A stretch of 63,642 bases of DNA, the filler included. It is 5 parts of 5 records of this genome, joined end to end, with 100 filler letters (N's around TTAATTAATTAA, not from the genome) between each part and the next. Parts side by side here need not be neighbours in the genome. Positions count along the whole stretch, not along the records: positions 50,247 to 58,294 come from SRR20825010_6719; 4 more parts are not named here. One strand, 5' to 3'. Below are positions 48,713 through 58,294 of the stretch, one piece after another; position 1 is the first letter of the stretch; each line of letters starts with the position of its first letter. The notes below the pieces were generated by a model. It was not told where the DNA came from and did not search any database. It saw only the letters and a program-made list of their open reading frames with translations. A program made the position numbers and the translations under genes.

Positions 48713-48980
48713 TTGTAATAGTGAGGTGTCATTTTCAAGATAAGATGTTTTTTAAATTAATTGGAACATTAAACCCTTACTGTTGTTGACTAAGTATAAT
48801 GAGCTACGCAAAACATATTAAATATTCGAAAAAGGTTACTTTTTCTAATTCTCGGACCCTTCCTGTGGTCTACTGCGTGTTCGTTAATTAATCTCTGAAA
48901 TCTATTATTGTCGCCACCGAGGTATTCGCCTGGGGCAGTTTGCTATAAGCAATCTTTAAATTCATTTAATAAACACAATC

Positions 48981-49808
48981 ATGAAAGTGCTAGTAATTGG
49001 TGCAGGAAATATGGGCTTAATCTATACGTCCTCCATCGCAAAATCGGGTTATTTAAAAAAGGAAAACCTGATCATCTTCGATAAATCTCTTGAGTTAAGA
49101 GAAACGCTTAAAAAGTCTACAGAAAATTATGAAGTCTACGATAGTCTAGAGGAATGTCTTCCTATAGCGGACATCATTTTTCTGGCGGTAAAACCTTACC
49201 ACAGCGATGAACTCATGCATGAAATGAGGGAAATGATGAATGACCAACAATTGGTGATTTCTATTATGGCAGGGATTACCATTGAAACCATTCAGCAAAG
49301 TTTGGGAATTACAAAAGTGGTGCGCGCCATGCCAAACCTGCCTGCACAAGTGGGTAAGGGAATGACGTCCTATTTGGCAGCACCAGAAGTTTCACGGATT
49401 GAACTGTGGAGAGTCGAAGATTTATTGAATACCACAGGAAAGTCTGTAAGAGTTGATTCTCAGCGCTTTATTGATGCTTCAACAGGTATTTCTGGTTCTG
49501 GGCCAGCTTATGTATTCTATTTCATGGAATCTATGATGGAAGCCGCTAAAAGCATGGGCTTCTCCGATAACGACTCAAAAGTATTGGTTAGCGCGACTTT
49601 CGAAGGAGCCATTGAACTGTTCAATAAGAATAAGCTTTCTGCGAATGGTTGGATGAAAAAAGTGAGCTCAAAAGGAGGTACTACCCAAGCAGCATTAGAC
49701 TCTTTGGATGACAATAATGTGCAACAGTTAATTCACGATGCCGCATATGCTGCCTTTAATAAAGCAATAGAATTAGGGCAAGAAGAAACAGAACTACAAG
49801 TAAAATAG
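48981..49808 (+). CDS. proC: Pyrroline-5-carboxylate reductase
   Basis: IGAGNMG, LAVKP, RAMPN, SGSGPAY and SKGGTT. Confidence 0.94.
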   Translation: MKVLVIGAGNMGLIYTSSIAKSGYLKKENLIIFDKSLELRETLKKSTENYEVYDSLEECLPIADIIFLAVKPYHSDELMHEMREMMNDQQLVISIMAGITIETIQQSLGITKVVRAMPNLPAQVGKGMTSYLAAPEVSRIELWRVEDLLNTTGKSVRVDSQRFIDASTGISGSGPAYVFYFMESMMEAAKSMGFSDNDSKVLVSATFEGAIELFNKNKLSANGWMKKVSSKGGTTQAALDSLDDNNVQQLIHDAAYAAFNKAIELGQEETELQVK

Positions 49809-49810
49809 TC

Positions 49811-50146
49811 GTGGTAAAATCAGGAAAAAAAAGAGTAGTAATAAAAGTAGGTACCAACGTACTGACCAATAAAGACAACCGTATTGTTAGACCTGTAATT
49901 CAGGGGATTGTAAGACAAATAGCAGAACTGTATGAAAGAGACATTCTTTCGGTCTTAATTTCATCAGGGTCTGTCATTGCTGGAAAAGAAATCCTAGGGC
50001 ATTCTAAGATTGAAGATAAGGCTATTAGAAGGCAAGTTTTCTCATCAGTAGGGCAACCGCGGATGATGCGGACCTATTATGAAACCTTCCATGATTACGG
50101 AATGAAGTGTGCGCAAGTATTGGCCACAAAAAGGGATTTTAACCCT
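49811..50146 (+). CDS. proB: Glutamate 5-kinase (3' truncated)
   Basis: VIKVGTNVLT, ISSGSV, VGQ and AQVL. Confidence 0.9.
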
Positions 50147-50246: not shown

Positions 50247-50247
50247 A

Positions 50248-50328
50248 AAAGTATCAGGTACGGTAAAAGGTACTATCTTTGCAGGCGTAAAAATCCTAGG
50301 TTGGATATTTAAATACAGTTTAAAATAA
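50248..50328 (+). CDS. C-terminal fragment of a GT2-family glycosyltransferase
   Basis: KVSGTVKGTIFAGVKILGWIFKYSLK-stop, ending just before the next ATG. Confidence 0.65.
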   Translation, partial: KVSGTVKGTIFAGVKILGWIFKYSLK

Positions 50329-50329
50329 T

Positions 50330-51814
50330 ATGGGACTAACAATTACTTACTTTATCATTGCGATTTACAGTATTTCATTACTATTGATATTCTTTTATAG
50401 TCTGGCCCAGCTTAATTTACTGGTCAACTATTTAGGATATAAAAGGAGAAATAAGGAGGCTCCAAAATACAATTTATTGGATCCAAAAGAAATACCATTT
50501 GTTACCATACAACTTCCTATATATAATGAGGAGTATGTAGTAGAGCGTTTATTGGACAATATTTCCAAAATAGAATATCCCATGAGCAAGTTGGAAATCC
50601 AGGTTTTGGACGATTCTACGGACGATTCCGTACATGACACTGCCAAGAGAATAAAAGCGCTTCAGGAAACAGGACTGGATATACAGCATATTAGACGGAC
50701 CAATAGGCAAGGCTATAAGGCAGGTGCCTTAAAGGAAGGTCTGGATATGGCCAAAGGGGAGTTTATTGCCATTTTTGATGCGGATTTCTTGCCTTCCAGT
50801 GATTGGTTGAAGAAAACTGTTATTTATTTTAAAGATCAGGAAATTGGTGTGGTGCAGACAAGATGGGGGCATATAAACAGGGAGTATTCCACTTTGACCC
50901 GTATACAGGCTTTTGCCTTGGATGCCCACTTTACATTGGAACAGGTAGGACGTAATGCCAAAGGACATTTTATAAATTTCAATGGTACCGCTGGTATCTG
51001 GAGAAAAGAATGTATTCTGGATGCTGGTAACTGGGAAGGTGATACCCTGACCGAGGATTTGGATCTTAGCTACCGTGCCCAATTAAAGAATTGGAAGTTT
51101 AAGTATTTGGAGGATGTAGAGACACCTGCAGAACTTCCTGTAGTAATCAGTGCTGCCCGTTCCCAGCAATTTCGTTGGAACAAAGGTGGGGCCGAAAACT
51201 TCAGAAAAACTGTTTGGAGCGTTATTTCTGCCAAGAACATTTCGTTCAAGACCAAGTTTCACGGGGTAATGCACTTGTTGAATAGCTCCATGTTCCTATG
51301 CGTATTTTTGGTGGCACTTTTAAGTATTCCCATGATGTATATAAAGAATACCTATGGTCACTTAGGATGGGTTTTTGAAGCTACCTCCTTCTTTATTCTG
51401 AGTACCGTAATCCTATTCGTTTGTTATTGGTTTACCTATAAGAGTATACAGGGCAGTAGTTTTGATAATTTTGTAGACTATATAAGAATCTTCTTTACGT
51501 TTTTCTCTGTGGCGCTCGGATTTTCTTTGCACAACTCCATTGCGGTCCTGGAAGGGCATATGGGCAAAAGATCTGAGTTTGTCAGGACCCCAAAATTCAA
51601 TTTGAACAGTATAACGGATAGCTGGAAAGGGAATAAATATTTGGCTACCAAACTTTCTCCCAATATGATTTTGGAAGCGGCCCTAATGCTTTACTTCCTT
51701 TTTGGAATGTATAGTGCCATTCCTTTGAACGATTTCGGGCTTTTCCCATTTCATTTCATGTTATTTTTGGGCTTTGGTTATGTATTCTTCAAATCCCTTA
51801 TGGCAAGAGCCTAA
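50330..51814 (+). CDS. Processive GT2 (cellulose synthase-like) glycosyltransferase
   Basis: QLPIYNE, LDDS, KAGAL, FDADF, TEDLD and QQFRW. Confidence 0.92.
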   Translation: MGLTITYFIIAIYSISLLLIFFYSLAQLNLLVNYLGYKRRNKEAPKYNLLDPKEIPFVTIQLPIYNEEYVVERLLDNISKIEYPMSKLEIQVLDDSTDDSVHDTAKRIKALQETGLDIQHIRRTNRQGYKAGALKEGLDMAKGEFIAIFDADFLPSSDWLKKTVIYFKDQEIGVVQTRWGHINREYSTLTRIQAFALDAHFTLEQVGRNAKGHFINFNGTAGIWRKECILDAGNWEGDTLTEDLDLSYRAQLKNWKFKYLEDVETPAELPVVISAARSQQFRWNKGGAENFRKTVWSVISAKNISFKTKFHGVMHLLNSSMFLCVFLVALLSIPMMYIKNTYGHLGWVFEATSFFILSTVILFVCYWFTYKSIQGSSFDNFVDYIRIFFTFFSVALGFSLHNSIAVLEGHMGKRSEFVRTPKFNLNSITDSWKGNKYLATKLSPNMILEAALMLYFLFGMYSAIPLNDFGLFPFHFMLFLGFGYVFFKSLMARA

Positions 51815-51836
51815 ATAAAATTTACAAAAGCTATTT

Positions 51837-51872
51837 AAAAGCCCTGTCCTTTTTAAGGAACAGGGCTTTTTT
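51837..51872 (+). terminator. Rho-independent terminator
   Basis: AAAAGCCCTGT..ACAGGGCTTTTTT. Confidence 0.8.
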
Positions 51873-52104
51873 AATTTTGAAATCCTTGAACAGGTTTAGA
51901 TCCTTAAACCATTAGTTAAGAAAGAGATAGGCCTACTCCAACGCGGTTATTGGAGCTGCTATCTCGGCTACTTACATTCGTGAATTTCAGAAAAACAAGG
52001 GTTTCATTGCCAAAATCAAAATTGAAAGCGCTGTTATTTGATAATTTCATTTAAATTTGGGAGATTGCTGAATTATTAAAGTGACCAAAAACTACCAGAC
52101 TTCT

Positions 52105-53466
52105 ATGATCCAAAGGGCCATTTCTTATTGGAAACTTCACAGGATTCCAATTTTAATGGTGCTGCTTAGTATCCTCTTTTATATTTCCTTTGGTCATCAT
52201 TTGGATCGGACCGATTTTATAAAGCTGCTTTGCCTTTATTTGGGGCTGTTCTTTTTATGCTATAAACTGATTCAGTTTGAAAAATGGAACTTCAAATTTT
52301 TGGCAATTTCCGGAACGATCTTCCGATTAATGCTACTTTTTGCCGAACCCAATCTTTCCCAGGATTTTTATAGATTTATATGGGATGGGCAGTTGATAAA
52401 CAATGGGTTGAGTCCTTATCTTCATCTTCCCAAGGACTTGATAATTCAGAATGGCCAACTTATGCACAATGCTGCAGAATTGGTAAGTGGCATGGGAAGC
52501 CTCAGCGCATCAAATTACAGTAATTATCCTCCATTGAACCAGTTTATTTTTGCCATGTCCACCTGGCTGTCAGGAAAGAGCGTGGTAGGAAGTGTATTGG
52601 TCATGAGGACCGTTATAATTATTTCCGATTTGGGAATTCTGTATTTCGGGCGTAAATTATTGCAGAAGCTCAATAAATCTACCCATCTCATCTTTTGGTA
52701 TTTCCTAAACCCATTGGTTGTTTTGGAACTTACCGGGAATCTGCATTTTGAAGGGGTAATGTTGTTCTTTTTCATATGGTCCATGTATCTTTTATGCAGT
52801 AAAAAATGGCTGTTGGCGGCTATTGTTTATGCGCTATCGATCTCTATAAAATTGGTGCCTTTACTATTTCTGCCCTTGTTTCTAAAATATTTTGGGTTTA
52901 AGAAAAGCATGCTCTTCTATGCTGTTGTGGGTATAACAACCGCACTTTTGGTGCTTCCGTTCTATTCCCCTGATTTTGCCGACAATTATATGGAGACTGT
53001 AGGGCTATGGTTCTCCAATTTTGAATTCAATGCCGGTCTATACAATGCCATAAAAAAGGTGGCTGTAAGTTTTGATGCCAAGCCGTGGGAACTCATCAAG
53101 GATTATGGAAAAATTACACCTATAGTCGTCATTGCCTCTGTGGCCTTGTTTACGTTTTTTAGGGACAATAAAAAGATTTCAAGCCTATTGACTTCCATGT
53201 TGTGGGTGCTGACTATTTATTATTTTCTGTCCGCTACCGTGCACCCCTGGTATATTATTTTCTTGGTGGTCTTAAGCCTGTTTACCGAGTTTAGATTTCC
53301 CTTGGTCTGGTCCTTGACTGTGATATTAAGTTACTGGGCCTATTCCAATGCAGGGTTTAAGGAGAATTATTGGTTGTTATCTGTTGAATATATTGCAGTA
53401 TATGGTTTTATGTTTTATGAAATTGTTAGATTACATAACAAAAAGATACTTTTTAGTAAAAATTGA
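52105..53466 (+). CDS. GT-C membrane mannosyltransferase-like protein (GT87/DUF2029-like)
   Basis: LSQDFYRFIWDG, NYPP, NPL..ELTGNLH, FEFNA and HPWY; polytopic membrane protein. Confidence 0.8.
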   Translation: MIQRAISYWKLHRIPILMVLLSILFYISFGHHLDRTDFIKLLCLYLGLFFLCYKLIQFEKWNFKFLAISGTIFRLMLLFAEPNLSQDFYRFIWDGQLINNGLSPYLHLPKDLIIQNGQLMHNAAELVSGMGSLSASNYSNYPPLNQFIFAMSTWLSGKSVVGSVLVMRTVIIISDLGILYFGRKLLQKLNKSTHLIFWYFLNPLVVLELTGNLHFEGVMLFFFIWSMYLLCSKKWLLAAIVYALSISIKLVPLLFLPLFLKYFGFKKSMLFYAVVGITTALLVLPFYSPDFADNYMETVGLWFSNFEFNAGLYNAIKKVAVSFDAKPWELIKDYGKITPIVVIASVALFTFFRDNKKISSLLTSMLWVLTIYYFLSATVHPWYIIFLVVLSLFTEFRFPLVWSLTVILSYWAYSNAGFKENYWLLSVEYIAVYGFMFYEIVRLHNKKILFSKN

Positions 53467-53497
53467 CACATCAATCCCAATAATTCATTTTTATTTG

Positions 53498-53505
53498 TAC
53501 TTTTG
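53498..53505 (+). promoter_or_regulatory. Bacteroidota -7 promoter element for the leader and arg operon
   Basis: TACTTTTG matches TAnnTTTG, 8 nt upstream of the leader ATG. Confidence 0.6.
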
Positions 53506-53513
53506 ATGGTAGA

Positions 53514-53597
53514 ATGAATAACTCATATTACATACTTAACGTAAACAAGGTGTCCAACCTTGCTTATTCATTTACGCCTACACGTCGTCGCCCGTAA
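53514..53597 (+). CDS. Putative Arg/Pro leader peptide MNNSYYILNVNKVSNLAYSFTPTRRRP
   Basis: 27-codon ORF read by hand, ending CCT ACA CGT CGT CGC CCG TAA, 86 nt upstream of the arg/pro operon. Confidence 0.7.
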   Translation: MNNSYYILNVNKVSNLAYSFTPTRRRP

Positions 53598-53612
53598 GGG
53601 TGCGCTTCTTTT
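53586..53612 (+). terminator. Putative attenuator terminator overlapping the leader's Arg/Pro codons and stop
   Basis: CG(T)CGCCC-GTAA-GGGTGCG hairpin with a GNRA loop, followed by CTTCTTTT. Confidence 0.55.
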
Positions 53613-53683
53613 ATGGAAATAGGTGAGTCCATTTCCCTCTCAAAAAAAATAAATTATAATTTTAATTTTAAAAGCAACATTCA

Positions 53684-54313
53684 ATGAAGATTGTTATTGC
53701 TAACGATTCCCATTTTAAATATGCTGAAGTCATCTGCGAAACCATTGCAGAGTCGGCCAAAGTGCGTGGTACAGGGATAGCCAAGCGTACTCCTGAATAT
53801 ATTCAAAAAAGACTGCATAATGGCAATGCCATTATTGCCCTGGACGGCGATAAGTTTGCCGGTTTCTGTTATATTGAGGTATGGGGACATGAAAAATTTG
53901 TAGCAAATTCGGGTCTTATAGTGCATCCTGATTACAGGAATCAAGGTTTGGCCAAGAAAATAAAGAAAGAGATTTTTGAACTTTCCAGAAGTAAATTTCC
54001 CAATGCCAAAATTTTTGGGATTACAACGGGCTTGGCAGTGATGAAGATGAACTATGAATTGGGCTATAAGCCGGTCACTTTTTCGGAACTTACTACCGAT
54101 CCGGAGTTTTGGAAGGGTTGTCAGACCTGTAAGAATTTCGATATCCTTACCAGGACAGAACAGAAAATGTGTCTTTGTACCGGAATGTTGTACGATCCGG
54201 AAACCAAAGCCAAGGAGGTCCAAAAGGAGCCCAAGGAAAAATTGAATTCCAAAGCCTTTCAAAGATTAAAGAGTATAAAGGAAAGTCTGTTCCTAAATAA
54301 GAAAACAAAGTAG
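53684..54313 (+). CDS. GNAT acetyltransferase, probable short N-acetylglutamate synthase (ArgA function)
   Basis: SAKVRGTGIAKR, ANSGLIV.PDYRNQGLA and FWKGCQTC..CLCT; first gene of the arg operon. Confidence 0.8.
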   Translation: MKIVIANDSHFKYAEVICETIAESAKVRGTGIAKRTPEYIQKRLHNGNAIIALDGDKFAGFCYIEVWGHEKFVANSGLIVHPDYRNQGLAKKIKKEIFELSRSKFPNAKIFGITTGLAVMKMNYELGYKPVTFSELTTDPEFWKGCQTCKNFDILTRTEQKMCLCTGMLYDPETKAKEVQKEPKEKLNSKAFQRLKSIKESLFLNKKTK

Positions 54314-54356
54314 TTGTAAAGTACTGCTGTGAAAATATAAATAATAATAGTTTAGC

Positions 54357-55547
54357 ATGAAGAAATTAGTTTTAGCGTATAGCGGTGGTTTGGATACTTC
54401 CTATTGTGCCAAGTATTTATCAAAGGATCAAGGGTTTGAAGTACATGCCGTAAGTGTAAATACCGGTGGCTTTTCAAAGGAAGAAATAGAGAGCATTCAT
54501 AAAAAGGCCTTGGAACTAGGGGCCACTTCCTACACTTCCATAGATGCTGTAAACACTTTTTATGAAAAGGTAGTAAAGTACTTGATTTTTGGAAATGTAT
54601 TAAAAAACAATACCTATCCCTTATCGGTAAGTGCGGAGCGAATTGTTCAGGCCATTGAAATTGTTAATTACGCCAAAAGAGTTGGTGCCAAATATATTGC
54701 CCACGGTAGTACGGGAGCAGGGAACGATCAGGTTAGGTTTGATATGATCTTCCAGATCATTGCACCGGAGATCGAAATTATTACCCCAATACGTGATAAT
54801 AAATTGGCCAGGGAGGTAGAAATTGAATATTTAAAGCAGAATGGGGTAGATTACCCTTGGGAAAAGGCAAAATACTCCATCAATAGAGGTTTATGGGGTA
54901 CTTCCGTTGGAGGCGAGGAAACACTTACCTCCCACAAGTCCTTACCGGATACTGCCTATCCAAGCCAATTGCAAAAAACAGAACCCACACAGTTGAAACT
55001 TACTTTTCATAAGGGGGAATTAATTGCGTTGGATGGCGATAACGATACCCCTGTGAACAACATCGTAAAATTGGAGGCCATCGCTTCCAAATACGCCATT
55101 GGTAGGGATATCCACGTTGGGGATACCATTATTGGCATTAAAGGTAGGGTAGGGTTTGAAGCCCCTGCTTCCCTGATCATTATCAAGGCCCACCATTTGT
55201 TGGAAAAACACACCTTGACCAAATGGCAACAGTACCAAAAGGAAATGCAAGGTAATTTCTATGGGATGTTGTTGCACGAAGGAAATTATTTGGATGAGGT
55301 TATGCGAAATATCGAAGCATTTTTGACCGATACCCAGAAGAACGTAAGCGGTGATGTCTTTGTTAGCTTGCACCCATATCGTTTTGAACTGGACGGGATA
55401 TCCTCTCCGCACGATCTTATGAACGCCTCCTTTGGCAGCTATGGTGAGATGAACAAAGGATGGTCTGCGGATGATGCCAAAGGCTTTATAAAAATACTTT
55501 CCAATTCCGGAAAAATATACAATCACGTAAATCAGAATAATGATTAA
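54357..55547 (+). CDS. argG: Argininosuccinate synthase
   Basis: LAYSGGLDTS, HGSTGAGNDQVRF and KGRVGFEAP. Confidence 0.96.
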   Translation: MKKLVLAYSGGLDTSYCAKYLSKDQGFEVHAVSVNTGGFSKEEIESIHKKALELGATSYTSIDAVNTFYEKVVKYLIFGNVLKNNTYPLSVSAERIVQAIEIVNYAKRVGAKYIAHGSTGAGNDQVRFDMIFQIIAPEIEIITPIRDNKLAREVEIEYLKQNGVDYPWEKAKYSINRGLWGTSVGGEETLTSHKSLPDTAYPSQLQKTEPTQLKLTFHKGELIALDGDNDTPVNNIVKLEAIASKYAIGRDIHVGDTIIGIKGRVGFEAPASLIIIKAHHLLEKHTLTKWQQYQKEMQGNFYGMLLHEGNYLDEVMRNIEAFLTDTQKNVSGDVFVSLHPYRFELDGISSPHDLMNASFGSYGEMNKGWSADDAKGFIKILSNSGKIYNHVNQNND

Positions 55548-56514
55548 GGCAGGAATTATAGGTGGTTCAGGGTATACTGGTGGGGAACTCATCAGAATTC
55601 TACTTAACCATCCCAATACAACTATAGATTTTGTTTTTAGTACCACTAGGGCGGGTAGAAAGATTACCACGGCCCACCCGGATTTGTTGGGGGTAACCGA
55701 TCTTGTATTTACAGGGGAGATCAATAAGGATGTGGATGTGGTATTTCTATGTCTTGGGCATGGGAACTCCACCAGTTTTTTAAAGGAAAACGAGTTCTCC
55801 AAAGACACCAAAATCATAGATTTAAGTAATGATTTTAGGTTGGAGGCCGATGCCGTTCTAGACGGAAAAACTTTTATTTACGGCTTGCCCGAACTGAAAA
55901 AGGAAGAAATTAAAAAGGCAAAATATATTGCCAACCCAGGTTGTTTTGCTACCGCAATCCAATTGGCGCTTTTACCCTTGGCAAAGGCCCATAAATTGGA
56001 CAGGCCGGTGCATGTCAATGCCGTTACCGGAAGTACAGGGGCGGGGGTAAGCCTTTCGGCTACCTCACATTTTAGCTGGAGGAACAATAACGTATCCTGG
56101 TACAAACCATTTACCCATCAGCACTTAGGGGAAATAAATGAAAGTCTCCACAGTCTTCAGGAAAATACCGGGGAAATTTTCTTCCTGCCAAACAGGGGGA
56201 ATTTTACCAGGGGGATTTTGGCTACGGCCTATACCGATTTTGAAGGGAGTCTGGAAGAGGCCTATGAACTGTACAAGGATTTTTACAAGGATGCGGCTTA
56301 TACCCAAGTGACGGAAGAGGATATCAACCTAAAACAGGTGGTAAATACCAACCAATGTCATATTCATTTGCACAAACACAATAATACCCTGCTGATTACC
56401 TCGGCCATAGACAATTTGTTGAAAGGGGCTTCAGGGCAGGCAGTGCAGAATATGAACTTGGCGTTCGGCTTTAAGGAAACTGAAGGGCTGCAATTAAAAG
56501 CAGGCGTATTTTAA
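55540..56514 (+). CDS. argC: N-acetyl-gamma-glutamyl-phosphate reductase
   Basis: GGSGYTG, ANPGCFAT, GSTGAG, HQHL and DNLLKGASGQAVQN. Confidence 0.96.
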   Translation: MIKAGIIGGSGYTGGELIRILLNHPNTTIDFVFSTTRAGRKITTAHPDLLGVTDLVFTGEINKDVDVVFLCLGHGNSTSFLKENEFSKDTKIIDLSNDFRLEADAVLDGKTFIYGLPELKKEEIKKAKYIANPGCFATAIQLALLPLAKAHKLDRPVHVNAVTGSTGAGVSLSATSHFSWRNNNVSWYKPFTHQHLGEINESLHSLQENTGEIFFLPNRGNFTRGILATAYTDFEGSLEEAYELYKDFYKDAAYTQVTEEDINLKQVVNTNQCHIHLHKHNNTLLITSAIDNLLKGASGQAVQNMNLAFGFKETEGLQLKAGVF

Positions 56515-56624
56515 TGTTGCGGTCCCAATAGGGTTGATGAACATTATTAAAACCTACCAAAAAATAAATTAACCAATCATTGAATTCCCTAGGTTTAGGG
56601 AATGAAGCAAATAACGAATAAGGA

Positions 56625-57419
56625 ATGAAAATAGCTATTATTGGAGCAGGTAATTTAGGTCTTTCCATCGCCAAAGGCATTTTGAGCACTAATGGGGCCA
56701 CTTCCATGGTCCTTACCAAGAGAAATCTTAGTGGGCTTAAGGAAATTGAAAAATATGGAATTGTTACCACTACTACGGATAATAGGGAAGCGGTGGCCAA
56801 ATCGGACATCCTTATTTTTGCGGTACAACCCGGGCAATTTGTAAAGATTTTAGGCGAGGTAAAGGACATCCTTACAGACAAGCATGTTATAATTTCTACC
56901 ATTACCGGTTTTAGTATTGCCAGAATGGAAGAAGTCATTGGGCCGGATCATTATATTATCCGTGCCATGCCCAATACGGCTATTTCCGTGGGCAAATCCA
57001 TGACCTGTATCTGTAGTAATGAGAAAGGTGCCAAGCGGATAGACCTGGCCAAGGCCATTTTTAACCGTATGGGGCATTCCATGCAAATTCCGGAAGACCA
57101 GATGCAGGCCGCTACCGTTATTTGTGCCAGTGGAATTGCGTTTTGGATGCGATTGATACGAGCTACCACCCAAGGGGCTATTCAATTGGGATTCGATGCC
57201 AAGGAAGCACAGGAATTGGCCATGCATACCTGTAATGGGGCTGCTAGTTTGTTGATAGAATCTGACAGTCACCCGGAAAATGAAATAGATAAGGTAACTA
57301 CTCCAAGGGGATGTACCATTTCCGGATTGAACGAAATGGAACACCAAGGGTTAAGCTCCTCCCTGATCAGGGGAATAGTAGCCTCATTTGACAAGATAAA
57401 CGAAATAAAAAAAGGATAA
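56625..57419 (+). CDS. proC: Pyrroline-5-carboxylate reductase
   Basis: IGAGNLG, FAVQP, RAMPN and VTTPRGCT. Confidence 0.9.
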   Translation: MKIAIIGAGNLGLSIAKGILSTNGATSMVLTKRNLSGLKEIEKYGIVTTTTDNREAVAKSDILIFAVQPGQFVKILGEVKDILTDKHVIISTITGFSIARMEEVIGPDHYIIRAMPNTAISVGKSMTCICSNEKGAKRIDLAKAIFNRMGHSMQIPEDQMQAATVICASGIAFWMRLIRATTQGAIQLGFDAKEAQELAMHTCNGAASLLIESDSHPENEIDKVTTPRGCTISGLNEMEHQGLSSSLIRGIVASFDKINEIKKG

Positions 57420-57478
57420 CCTCTACCTTGGACCTGCAAGGTATTTATTCAAGGGAGGTTCATAATACAATATAGAAG

Positions 57479-58294
57479 ATGGAATTATTTGATGTGTACC
57501 CATTATATAACGTTACTCCCGTTTCGGCCAAGGGAATCGTAGTTACCGATGAAAAAGGCCAGGAGTATTTGGATTTTTACGGTGGACATGCCGTAATTTC
57601 CATAGGGCATTCCCATCCGCATTATGTACAAAGATTAAAGGAGCAGTTGGATAAGATCGGTTTTTATAGCAATGCCGTCCAGAATCCTGTTCAGGAGGCC
57701 TTGGCAAATAAACTGGGAAAACTTTCTGGCTGTGAGGATTACAATCTGTTCCTCTGCAATTCTGGGGCAGAGGCCAACGAAAATGCCTTAAAATTGGCAT
57801 CGTTCCAAACAGGGAAATCACGTGTAATTGCCTTTAAACACGGATTCCATGGGAGAACTTCTGCTGCCGTGGCCGCCACGGACAACGAAAAAATAAATGC
57901 CCCCATCAACAAGCAACAAAAGGTAACCATACTTCCTTTCGAGGATTTGGCCGCTTTTAAAAACGAAATTTCCAAAGGGGATGTATGTTGTGTAATTATA
58001 GAGACCATTCAAGGGGTTGGGGGTCTGGATCAGCCGTCCCAGGAGTTTTATCAAAATATAGCTTCATTTTCTAAGGAAAACGGGGCATTGCTGATTGCAG
58101 ACGAGGTGCAATGTGGTTATGGAAGAAGTGGTAAATTTTTTGCCTTCCAACACTACGGCATCAAACCCGATATTATTACCGTAGCCAAGGGAATGGGCAA
58201 CGGATTTCCTATTGGCGGGGTCCTGATCCATGAAAACATCAAGGCTTCCTACGGCATGTTGGGAACCACCTTTGGGGGCAATCATTTGGCATGT
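57479..58294 (+). CDS. argD: Acetylornithine aminotransferase (3' truncated)
   Basis: NSGAEANE, FHGRT, DEVQCG, AKGMGNG and GTTFGGN. Confidence 0.9.

Follow-up and report, generated by a model that had tools for sequence, protein, structure and literature searches.

A candidate arginine-codon leader-peptide attenuator ahead of an arg/pro operon in Bacteroidia

Arginine biosynthesis is a textbook repressor-controlled pathway, and to our knowledge it is classically without leader-peptide attenuation. Other amino acid operons are governed by the classical attenuators (hisL, trpL and the ilv leaders), in which a short uORF at the start of the transcript carries a run of codons for the product. The accessible part of supplement file 8 of PMC9723704 includes F. 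psychrophilum leaders of hisG and ilvE, and holds no arginine, argG or argC leader entry. Several described uORFs come closer to the element presented here. In speFL (orf34), a hairpin covers the 3′ end of the uORF and Rho terminates just downstream (10.1101/604074, in the portion available), while in cruR a rut site inside the uORF is shielded by a stalled ribosome (PMC12360218, likewise in part). Parts of 10.1101/834739 and PMC1262725 describe mycobacterial poly-Cys sORFs, in which the output is a freed, previously sequestered ribosome-binding site, and a partial text of PMC13009471 describes S. aureus rbfL, a uORF that senses arginine limitation through Arg codons. A literature survey with subscription papers mostly outside its scope yielded no Arg leader of an arginine biosynthesis operon, and the portions available of PMC8632094, PMC7366714 and PMC2965389 make no mention of the element.

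Here we describe a uORF ending in a run of Arg codons, followed by two small hairpins, ahead of an operon for arginine and proline synthesis in marine flavobacteria in which the repressor ArgR was not found. Judged from sequence comparison, the most likely role of this leader would be to turn the operon on during arginine shortage by way of a stalled ribosome.

The locus and its leader reading frame

The window, which is the whole 63,642-nt stretch of DNA analysed, consists of five segments, separated by N gaps, with G+C contents of 60, 54, 39, 40 and 63%. The leader is on the segment at positions 50247-58294, which ends at a scaffold gap (Table 1); the segments flanking it are probably from other organisms. 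A second proC-proB pair is present on the neighbouring segment (48799-50146), and the 30-codon ORF ahead of it (48799-48891) has one Pro and one Arg codon and is no Pro-run leader.

Table 1. Coordinates of the leader and operon features within the window.
Feature	Position	Strand	Basis
Sigma-A −7 box, Bacteroidota TAnnTTTG type, TACTTTTG	53498-53505	+	Sequence
Leader uORF, 27 aa, near-leaderless (5′ UTR of ~4 nt)	53514-53597 (TAA 53595-97)	+	ORF call, 80/80 near loci
Pyrimidine/C-rich tract within the uORF (codons −14 through −3), candidate site of Rho loading	53553-53588	+	YC density
Putative regulatory Arg codons CGT CGT CGC	53583-53591	+	Conservation at −2, −3, −4
Hairpin 1, short stem formed by the final Arg and Pro codons, GUAA loop containing the stop codon	53589-53602	+	Folding, covariation
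U-rich, G-poor linker, with CGCTTCTTTT after hairpin 1	53603-53614	+	Length, composition
Hairpin 2, bulged stem, UGAGU pentaloop	53615-53636	+	Covariation, single copy
Elemental-pause-like site within hairpin 2	G53615 (−10), U53624 (−1), G53625 (+1)	+	Consensus match
GNAT acetyltransferase, operon gene 1, here labelled argA′	53684-54313	+	Pfam GNAT
argG, argC, proC, argD (argD cut by scaffold gap)	54357-58294	+	Gene calls

The operon described in the first-pass annotation (GNAT, argG, argC, proC, argD) was confirmed by gene calls and Pfam, and its TAnnTTTG box followed by an ATG was confirmed in the sequence. The GNAT gene, which is 98% and 96% identical in the window to two Arenibacter records, is labelled argA′ from its position, and argG follows it in nearly all loci examined. 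In relatives, the operon extends through an optional proA-proB pair to argF, argB, argE and argH. Near operons of sufficient extent all include proC, and 25 have both proA and proB. These near loci are the best 80 of 450 confirmed relatives, or 81 with the window, and all 81 have a TAnnTT(T/A)(G/A) box. If the box is taken as −12 to −5, as placed in the accessible part of PMC9723704, transcription is predicted to start at about 53510, 4 bases 5′ of the ATG. As a small correction to the earlier reading, an out-of-frame ATG at 53506 lies upstream of this predicted +1.

Bacteroidota start translation without Shine-Dalgarno pairing. The uORF, which ends in Pro-Thr-Arg-Arg-Arg-Pro-stop in the window and has no hit in a Pfam scan, had been proposed as an Arg-codon leader ORF whose Arg run should be sought by alignment, and both the uORF and the run prove to be kept in relatives. 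All 80 near loci have an ATG-started uORF with an Arg-Pro-stop end, 83-98 nt upstream of the GNAT start, a recurrence well above what chance would give. These uORFs are 22-28 codons long, begin a few bases past the −7 box (mostly with a 5′ UTR of 2-5 nt) and have 2-4 Arg codons at the end. The first ATG at least 2 nt past the promoter box is in frame at 80 of 81 loci, across five lengths (22, 25, 26, 27 and 28 codons); in the sole exception an ATG lies ahead of the predicted +1, and the ATG that follows is the one in frame. A long 5′ hairpin that hides the uORF AUG in the window was considered and set aside as not conserved, since only 47% of the 81 loci have a paired probability that exceeds 0.5. 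The hisG leaders of five related genomes (L278-L282) are His-run uORFs with the same near-leaderless start, which makes translation of the Arg leader layout plausible. The ilvD upstream regions of five genomes offered no useful control leader.

Conservation separates the terminal codons into two kinds. Arg is found at −2 in 81/81 loci, at −3 in 73/81 and at −4 in 74/81, and since CGT and CGC exchange for each other at −3 and −4, these positions are held as arginine. The last two codons, by comparison, are CGC CCG in 81/81 loci with zero synonymous change, and are therefore held as RNA. CGY makes up 291 of 318 uORF Arg codons against 154 of 646 in argA′, in a tally that includes 4 mis-framed rows of 81. 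A non-regulatory reading, in which RNA structure alone is conserved and the Arg codons are a by-product of its CG-rich stem, would account for the RNA-constrained last Arg and Pro codons. We consider it highly improbable, given the conserved start position, the frame kept over five lengths, the synonymous Arg swaps at −3 and −4, and the Arg-ending uORFs of distant relatives, which have unrelated stems and other Arg codons.

The peptide itself also seems to be constrained, as pN/pS is 0.26 at codons −12 to −5 while the N-terminal part has 0.60 (28 pairs selected for an identity of ≥70%), a constraint that a pure codon sensor does not need. TnaC, like the window peptide, ends in Pro-stop. Such a constraint is what a metabolite-sensing arrest peptide of the TnaC/SpeFL type would bring, with a nascent C-terminal F-x-P-x-R-R segment stalling on a free ligand, for example arginine or a pathway intermediate. 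[FY]xxxR is present in 67 of 79 near peptides against 26±4 when shuffled, 33 of the 53 distant peptides have P(x)R against 22±3, and SpeFL stalls with Phe30, Phe31 and Arg34 beside its stop (10.1101/604074, in the part available). The aromatic motif is, however, confined to the near clade and was rejected as a general feature, since the 24 farther and 53 distant peptides show no enrichment of [FY]xxxR (7 versus 6.4 and 17 versus 13.5, respectively). Nor is a sensor conserved at the N-terminus, and the leaders vary in length, in last residue and in where the stop falls. Arg alone is common to the leaders throughout the class, and its number varies as it does in hungry-codon sensors; we regard an arrest peptide as improbable.

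Hairpins, terminator and proline

Both hairpins, including the stop codon in the loop of the first, are present as the first-pass annotation had described them, and the covariation it had proposed to look for was found. The covariation set comprises 47 loci hand-chosen from 111 with the hairpin 2 core, the kinship of which inflates the signal. Over the aligned hairpins, 93% of cells pair, and two-sided changes occur at 5 of 11 counted pairs, a level reached by 0 of 500 shuffles and by none of the slid controls, all of which were lower. Hairpin 1 has a stem of at most 5 bp and a mean energy of −8.3 kcal/mol; C-G is replaced by A-U at one pair in 4 of 47 loci, the inner pair is intact in 47/47 and the outer pair is broken in 21/46. 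Hairpin 2 has two-sided changes at 4 of 6 counted pairs, and its loop reads UGAGU in 76, UGUGU in 3 and UGCGU in 2 of 81 loci. It is single copy in five genomes, barring one match with 2 mismatches. A role of hairpin 2 as a transcription-factor operator was rejected because of this single copy per genome and because its G-U pairs favor RNA. Searches against Rfam gave only three chance matches for the window (E 3-8) and no match at E up to 1 for 20 related loci. The linker between the hairpins is 11-14 nt long in 81/81 loci, with a C/G ratio of 4.7. In the window, the base of hairpin 2 also has an ATG, from which a frame of 24 codons (53613-53687) runs to a stop that overlaps the argA′ start.

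Hairpin 1 with the following CUUCUUUU had been read as an intrinsic terminator that a ribosome held up at hungry Arg or Pro codons would mask, so that both amino acids control the operon. The window's hairpin 1 does pass a terminator scan, as one of 5 terminator-like sites in 1.2 kb. The tract is not conserved, however: in the 8 nt past hairpin 1, at least 6 T are found in 9 of 81 loci (the window among them) and at least 5 in 38 of 81, and no more than 4 T are found past hairpin 2 in 81/81. The stem is likewise short beside the hisG leaders of the same five genomes, which have nearly identical terminators of 11-13 bp followed by U-rich tails. Neither of the two hairpins resembles an intrinsic terminator, and this part of the first-pass annotation is not supported by the aligned sequences. 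Moreover, hairpin 1 would also be opened by a ribosome that has reached the stop codon, and masking could then separate the fed from the starved state only through dwell time. The view that there is no separate antiterminator was borne out, in that constrained folding found none and the 3′ strand of hairpin 1 has no shared partner. Hairpin 2 has a pairing probability of 0.67-0.80 at all modelled ribosome positions. Pairing of the hairpin 1 5′ arm with the GGUG of hairpin 2 was tried and rejected, as it is broken by changes in L094/96/98/99 and L115/118.

The second part of the dual-control reading, sensing of proline through the Pro-stop end, did not hold either. The terminal CCG is synonymously invariant in 81/81 loci and the Pro follows the RNA stem: in 23 farther loci the frame ends in RP-stop at 13, in RT-stop at 2, by loop read-through at 7 and in another register at 1, and the two RT-stop loci are those with a changed stem. 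Pro is the last residue in only 1 of 36 distant leaders, and three loci with RP-stop (L190, L194, L195) precede operons in which the 12 kb retrieved contain no pro gene. Favoring a proline input are the proC gene of all sufficiently extended near operons and the in-frame enrichment of internal Pro codons (165 versus 104±8). Internal Pro codons are, however, no more frequent per near leader in the 25 proAB operons (2.08) than in the 35 without proAB (2.51). Judged against an mgtL-like Pro-codon sensor, the leader has no consecutive Pro codons (Pro-Pro in 0 of 79 near peptides), a stem-bound terminal Pro and no proAB link, and 14 of 53 distant leaders have no Pro among their 12 final codons. Given the in-frame enrichment of internal Pro, a minor Pro input may still exist; the low pN/pS at codons −12 to −5 and the enrichment of P(x)R in distant leaders, both given above, also speak for it. 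A genuine response to Pro nevertheless seems unlikely, and the Pro-rich context probably aids stalling or supplies C-rich RNA. Taken together, an intrinsic terminator under dual Arg/Pro control is very unlikely.

ArgR and the leader across Bacteroidia

The absence of argR had been proposed as a check, and a true ArgR was not found in 84 related Flavobacteriales genomes (5 with named loci and 79 further) by searches with positive controls. The single ArgR hit among the 79 genomes is a WYL/WCX protein and was rejected as a true ArgR. In a class-level sample of 401 genomes, 151 have an argA′ match and 15 a strong ArgR hit. For 11 of these 15 (L258-L268), argR is directly upstream of argA′, where the leader sits elsewhere.

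We compared 49 of the ~135 ArgR-less argA′ loci with 11 ArgR-bearing loci, all counts being non-independent as the loci are kin. With a strict rule that requires 3 Arg within 6 codons, a uORF is found at 17 of 49 ArgR-less loci and 0 of 11 ArgR loci; shuffles give 4.1±2.0 and the reverse strand 11 of 49. Under a looser rule, set after seeing the sequences, an Arg-ending uORF precedes argA′ at 36 of 49 ArgR-less loci and 1 of 11 ArgR loci, against 8.8±2.7 in shuffles (Fisher 1.3e-4 for the contrast, without kinship correction). The strict rule is negative at 40 of 90 order-level loci, some of which have another leader and some none. Distant Arg-ending uORFs have unrelated stems and other Arg codons (AGG, CGA, AGA), and the two-hairpin layout recurs across the class, also with unrelated stems. 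A hairpin with a UNNGY loop is present at 21 of 49 distant loci, compared to 1-3 for four control loop patterns, 6 of 49 on the reverse strand, and 1/11 and 0/11 in ArgR regions; this motif was defined after inspection, and covariation among UNNGY hairpins is partly circular.

Several other arrangements were observed ahead of argA′. In a two-uORF form of farther relatives (L172-L191, L207-L209), uORF1 is at the promoter and ends in an Arg run without Pro. uORF2 follows a U-rich tract, with a TTG, GTG or ATG start near −180, and extends to hairpin 1; the window's single uORF looks like a fusion of the two. A further leader type (L116-L135), for which we would guess a Flavobacterium-like origin, spans about −320 to +4 of argA′. 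In its uORF1, the Arg codons are two isolated CGGs, and a TSPEVR block is conserved. A TTG-started ORF of ~55-63 codons follows, whose end falls at −1 or +4 relative to the argA′ start in 14 of 16 loci; 4 further loci lack the motif. This layout suggests a translational-coupling cascade. Seven loci (L159, L162, L163, L165, L166, L168, L170) have neither an Arg uORF nor ArgR upstream of argA′; they have inverted AAAGATAA...TTATCTTT-like repeats before the argA′-proximal promoter, plus a small divergent ORF, and the repeats are possibly a repressor site. In L154, L155 and L167 (L134-type, genomes of ~0.6 Mb), argA′ and argG form one frame of ~590-650 codons without an upstream Arg uORF.

Pausing, Rho and comparison with described leaders

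Two further features of the leader bear on its possible output. A leader of ~85 nt before the stop codon is short for a Rho site. The pyrimidine-rich tract within the uORF has a YC-dimer density of 0.246, against 0.045 in the 5′ part of the uORF and 0.088 in argA′, and a C/G ratio of 2.27 against 0.99 in argA′, biases that are partly due to Pro, Ser, Phe and Thr codons. The spacer also has more C than G, and Rho is encoded in 5/5 related genomes. Such YC and C-over-G signals are pervasive in random sequence and hence weak predictors, according to the part of PMC13613805 available. The second feature is a match to the elemental pause consensus G−11 G−10 Y−1 G+1, as quoted in the accessible part of 10.1101/604074, a consensus derived from E. 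coli and to be read with the caution that hairpins often begin with G. The match is present within hairpin 2 at 81/81 near loci, 28-31 nt past the stop codon and 34-37 nt past the last Arg codon. G at −10 is kept in 17 of 23 farther loci and in 17 of 25 distant hairpins. In the distant hairpins the Y-G step is two bases deeper in the loop, with Y ahead of G in 25/25, and the distance from the last Arg codon to the pause-like site is 28-38 nt in 21/25. The register thus shifts with the first G of the stem, which suggests, from consensus matching, that a pause sequence rather than the identity of the loop is conserved. The spacing from hairpin 1 to the base of hairpin 2 is 11-13 nt in 75 of 81 loci and is compatible with a hairpin-stabilised pause. 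A pause consensus at the hairpin 2 base itself, found in only 20 of 81 loci, was rejected.

From these features we propose an arginyl-tRNA-sensing leader, whose output would most likely be Rho-dependent premature termination; we give this combination about an even chance. RNA polymerase would pause within hairpin 2, 29 nt past the stop codon, while the ribosome catches up. With arginine present, the ribosome would pass the Arg codons, terminate and depart, leaving the YC-rich tract and the G-poor linker bare, whereupon Rho would load on the exposed tract and terminate transcription in the spacer ahead of argA′, with hairpin 2 capping the 3′ end. With arginine absent, the ribosome would stall on the Arg codons and cover the tract, so that Rho is excluded and the operon is transcribed. 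We offer more tentatively, and with some doubt, the extension that this is a Bacteroidia-wide replacement for ArgR, in which a pause at hairpin 2, about 35 nt past the last Arg codon, would let a shift of 1-3 codons or a difference in dwell time gate Rho loading inside the uORF.

The same Arg-codon sensor could instead act on mRNA cleavage and stability or on argA′ translation, through an endonuclease at the U-rich linker, a protein on the hairpin 2 loop, or re-initiation at an ATG or TTG at the base of hairpin 2. The conserved loop is what a binding site would need, and in Salmonella speF, pausing at Arg codons governs RNase G decay (PMC6386406, as far as available). An ATG or TTG is at the hairpin 2 base in 87 of 88 near loci; read from there, the frame stays open until 12 nt or less from argA′ in 72 of 88, with 24 stops against 53 and 42 in the other frames; the second ORF of the L116-L135 leaders, ending at the argA′ start, also fits control of translation. 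On the other hand, the predicted accessibility of the argA′ start is 0.46-0.49 whatever the modelled ribosome position, and the second ORF terminates in any of the three frames, depending on the locus, and is not retained in 23 farther loci. On balance we find such outputs rather unlikely compared to termination by Rho. Summed over the readings that share the sensor, codon-based sensing of arginine in some form is very probable on the comparative evidence.

If the proposed mechanism is true, a biosynthetic operon would respond to a shortage of charged tRNA via Rho alone, and this would be the first leader-peptide attenuator of arginine biosynthesis that we could find. It would extend attenuation to a new amino acid, explain how a large and abundant group with no detected ArgR could control its arginine pathway, and provide a compact model of ribosome-polymerase-Rho interplay in Bacteroidota. 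The near-exclusive distribution of leader and argR at one locus points to a swap between protein and ribosome sensing in evolution.

Among known systems, the Arg leader would work like a leader-peptide attenuator and yet lacks the terminator and antiterminator that define the classical form. In further contrast to hisL, trpL and the ilv leaders, its putative regulatory codons abut the stop. With speFL it shares the hairpin over the 3′ end of the uORF, Arg codons with a regulatory role, here a proposed one, the lack of an intrinsic terminator and, if the model holds, termination by Rho shortly downstream. speFL is nonetheless an ornithine-induced arrest peptide that targets a decarboxylase, with a HIRRXXH sensor and an internal rare Arg pair, whereas the Arg leader has no sensor motif, a terminal Arg run and a biosynthetic operon as its target, and the likeness is one of layout. 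The proposed polarity is that of cruR and tnaC, in which a stall shields the rut site and release leads to termination, as a biosynthetic operon needs; those leaders rely on nascent-peptide motifs and free ligands (copper, tryptophan), while the signal proposed here is a shortage of charged tRNA-Arg. rbfL, in the part of its description available, also reads arginine limitation but has 8 codons, overlaps the downstream ribosome-binding site, represses at low Arg and targets a biofilm regulator. The mycobacterial poly-Cys sORFs, as far as the available portions of their descriptions go, are alike in being leaderless uORFs with a run of cognate codons near the stop and no terminator; they differ in acting on a sequestered ribosome-binding site, whereas the argA′ start is 47 nt past hairpin 2 and is predicted to be free of sequestration.
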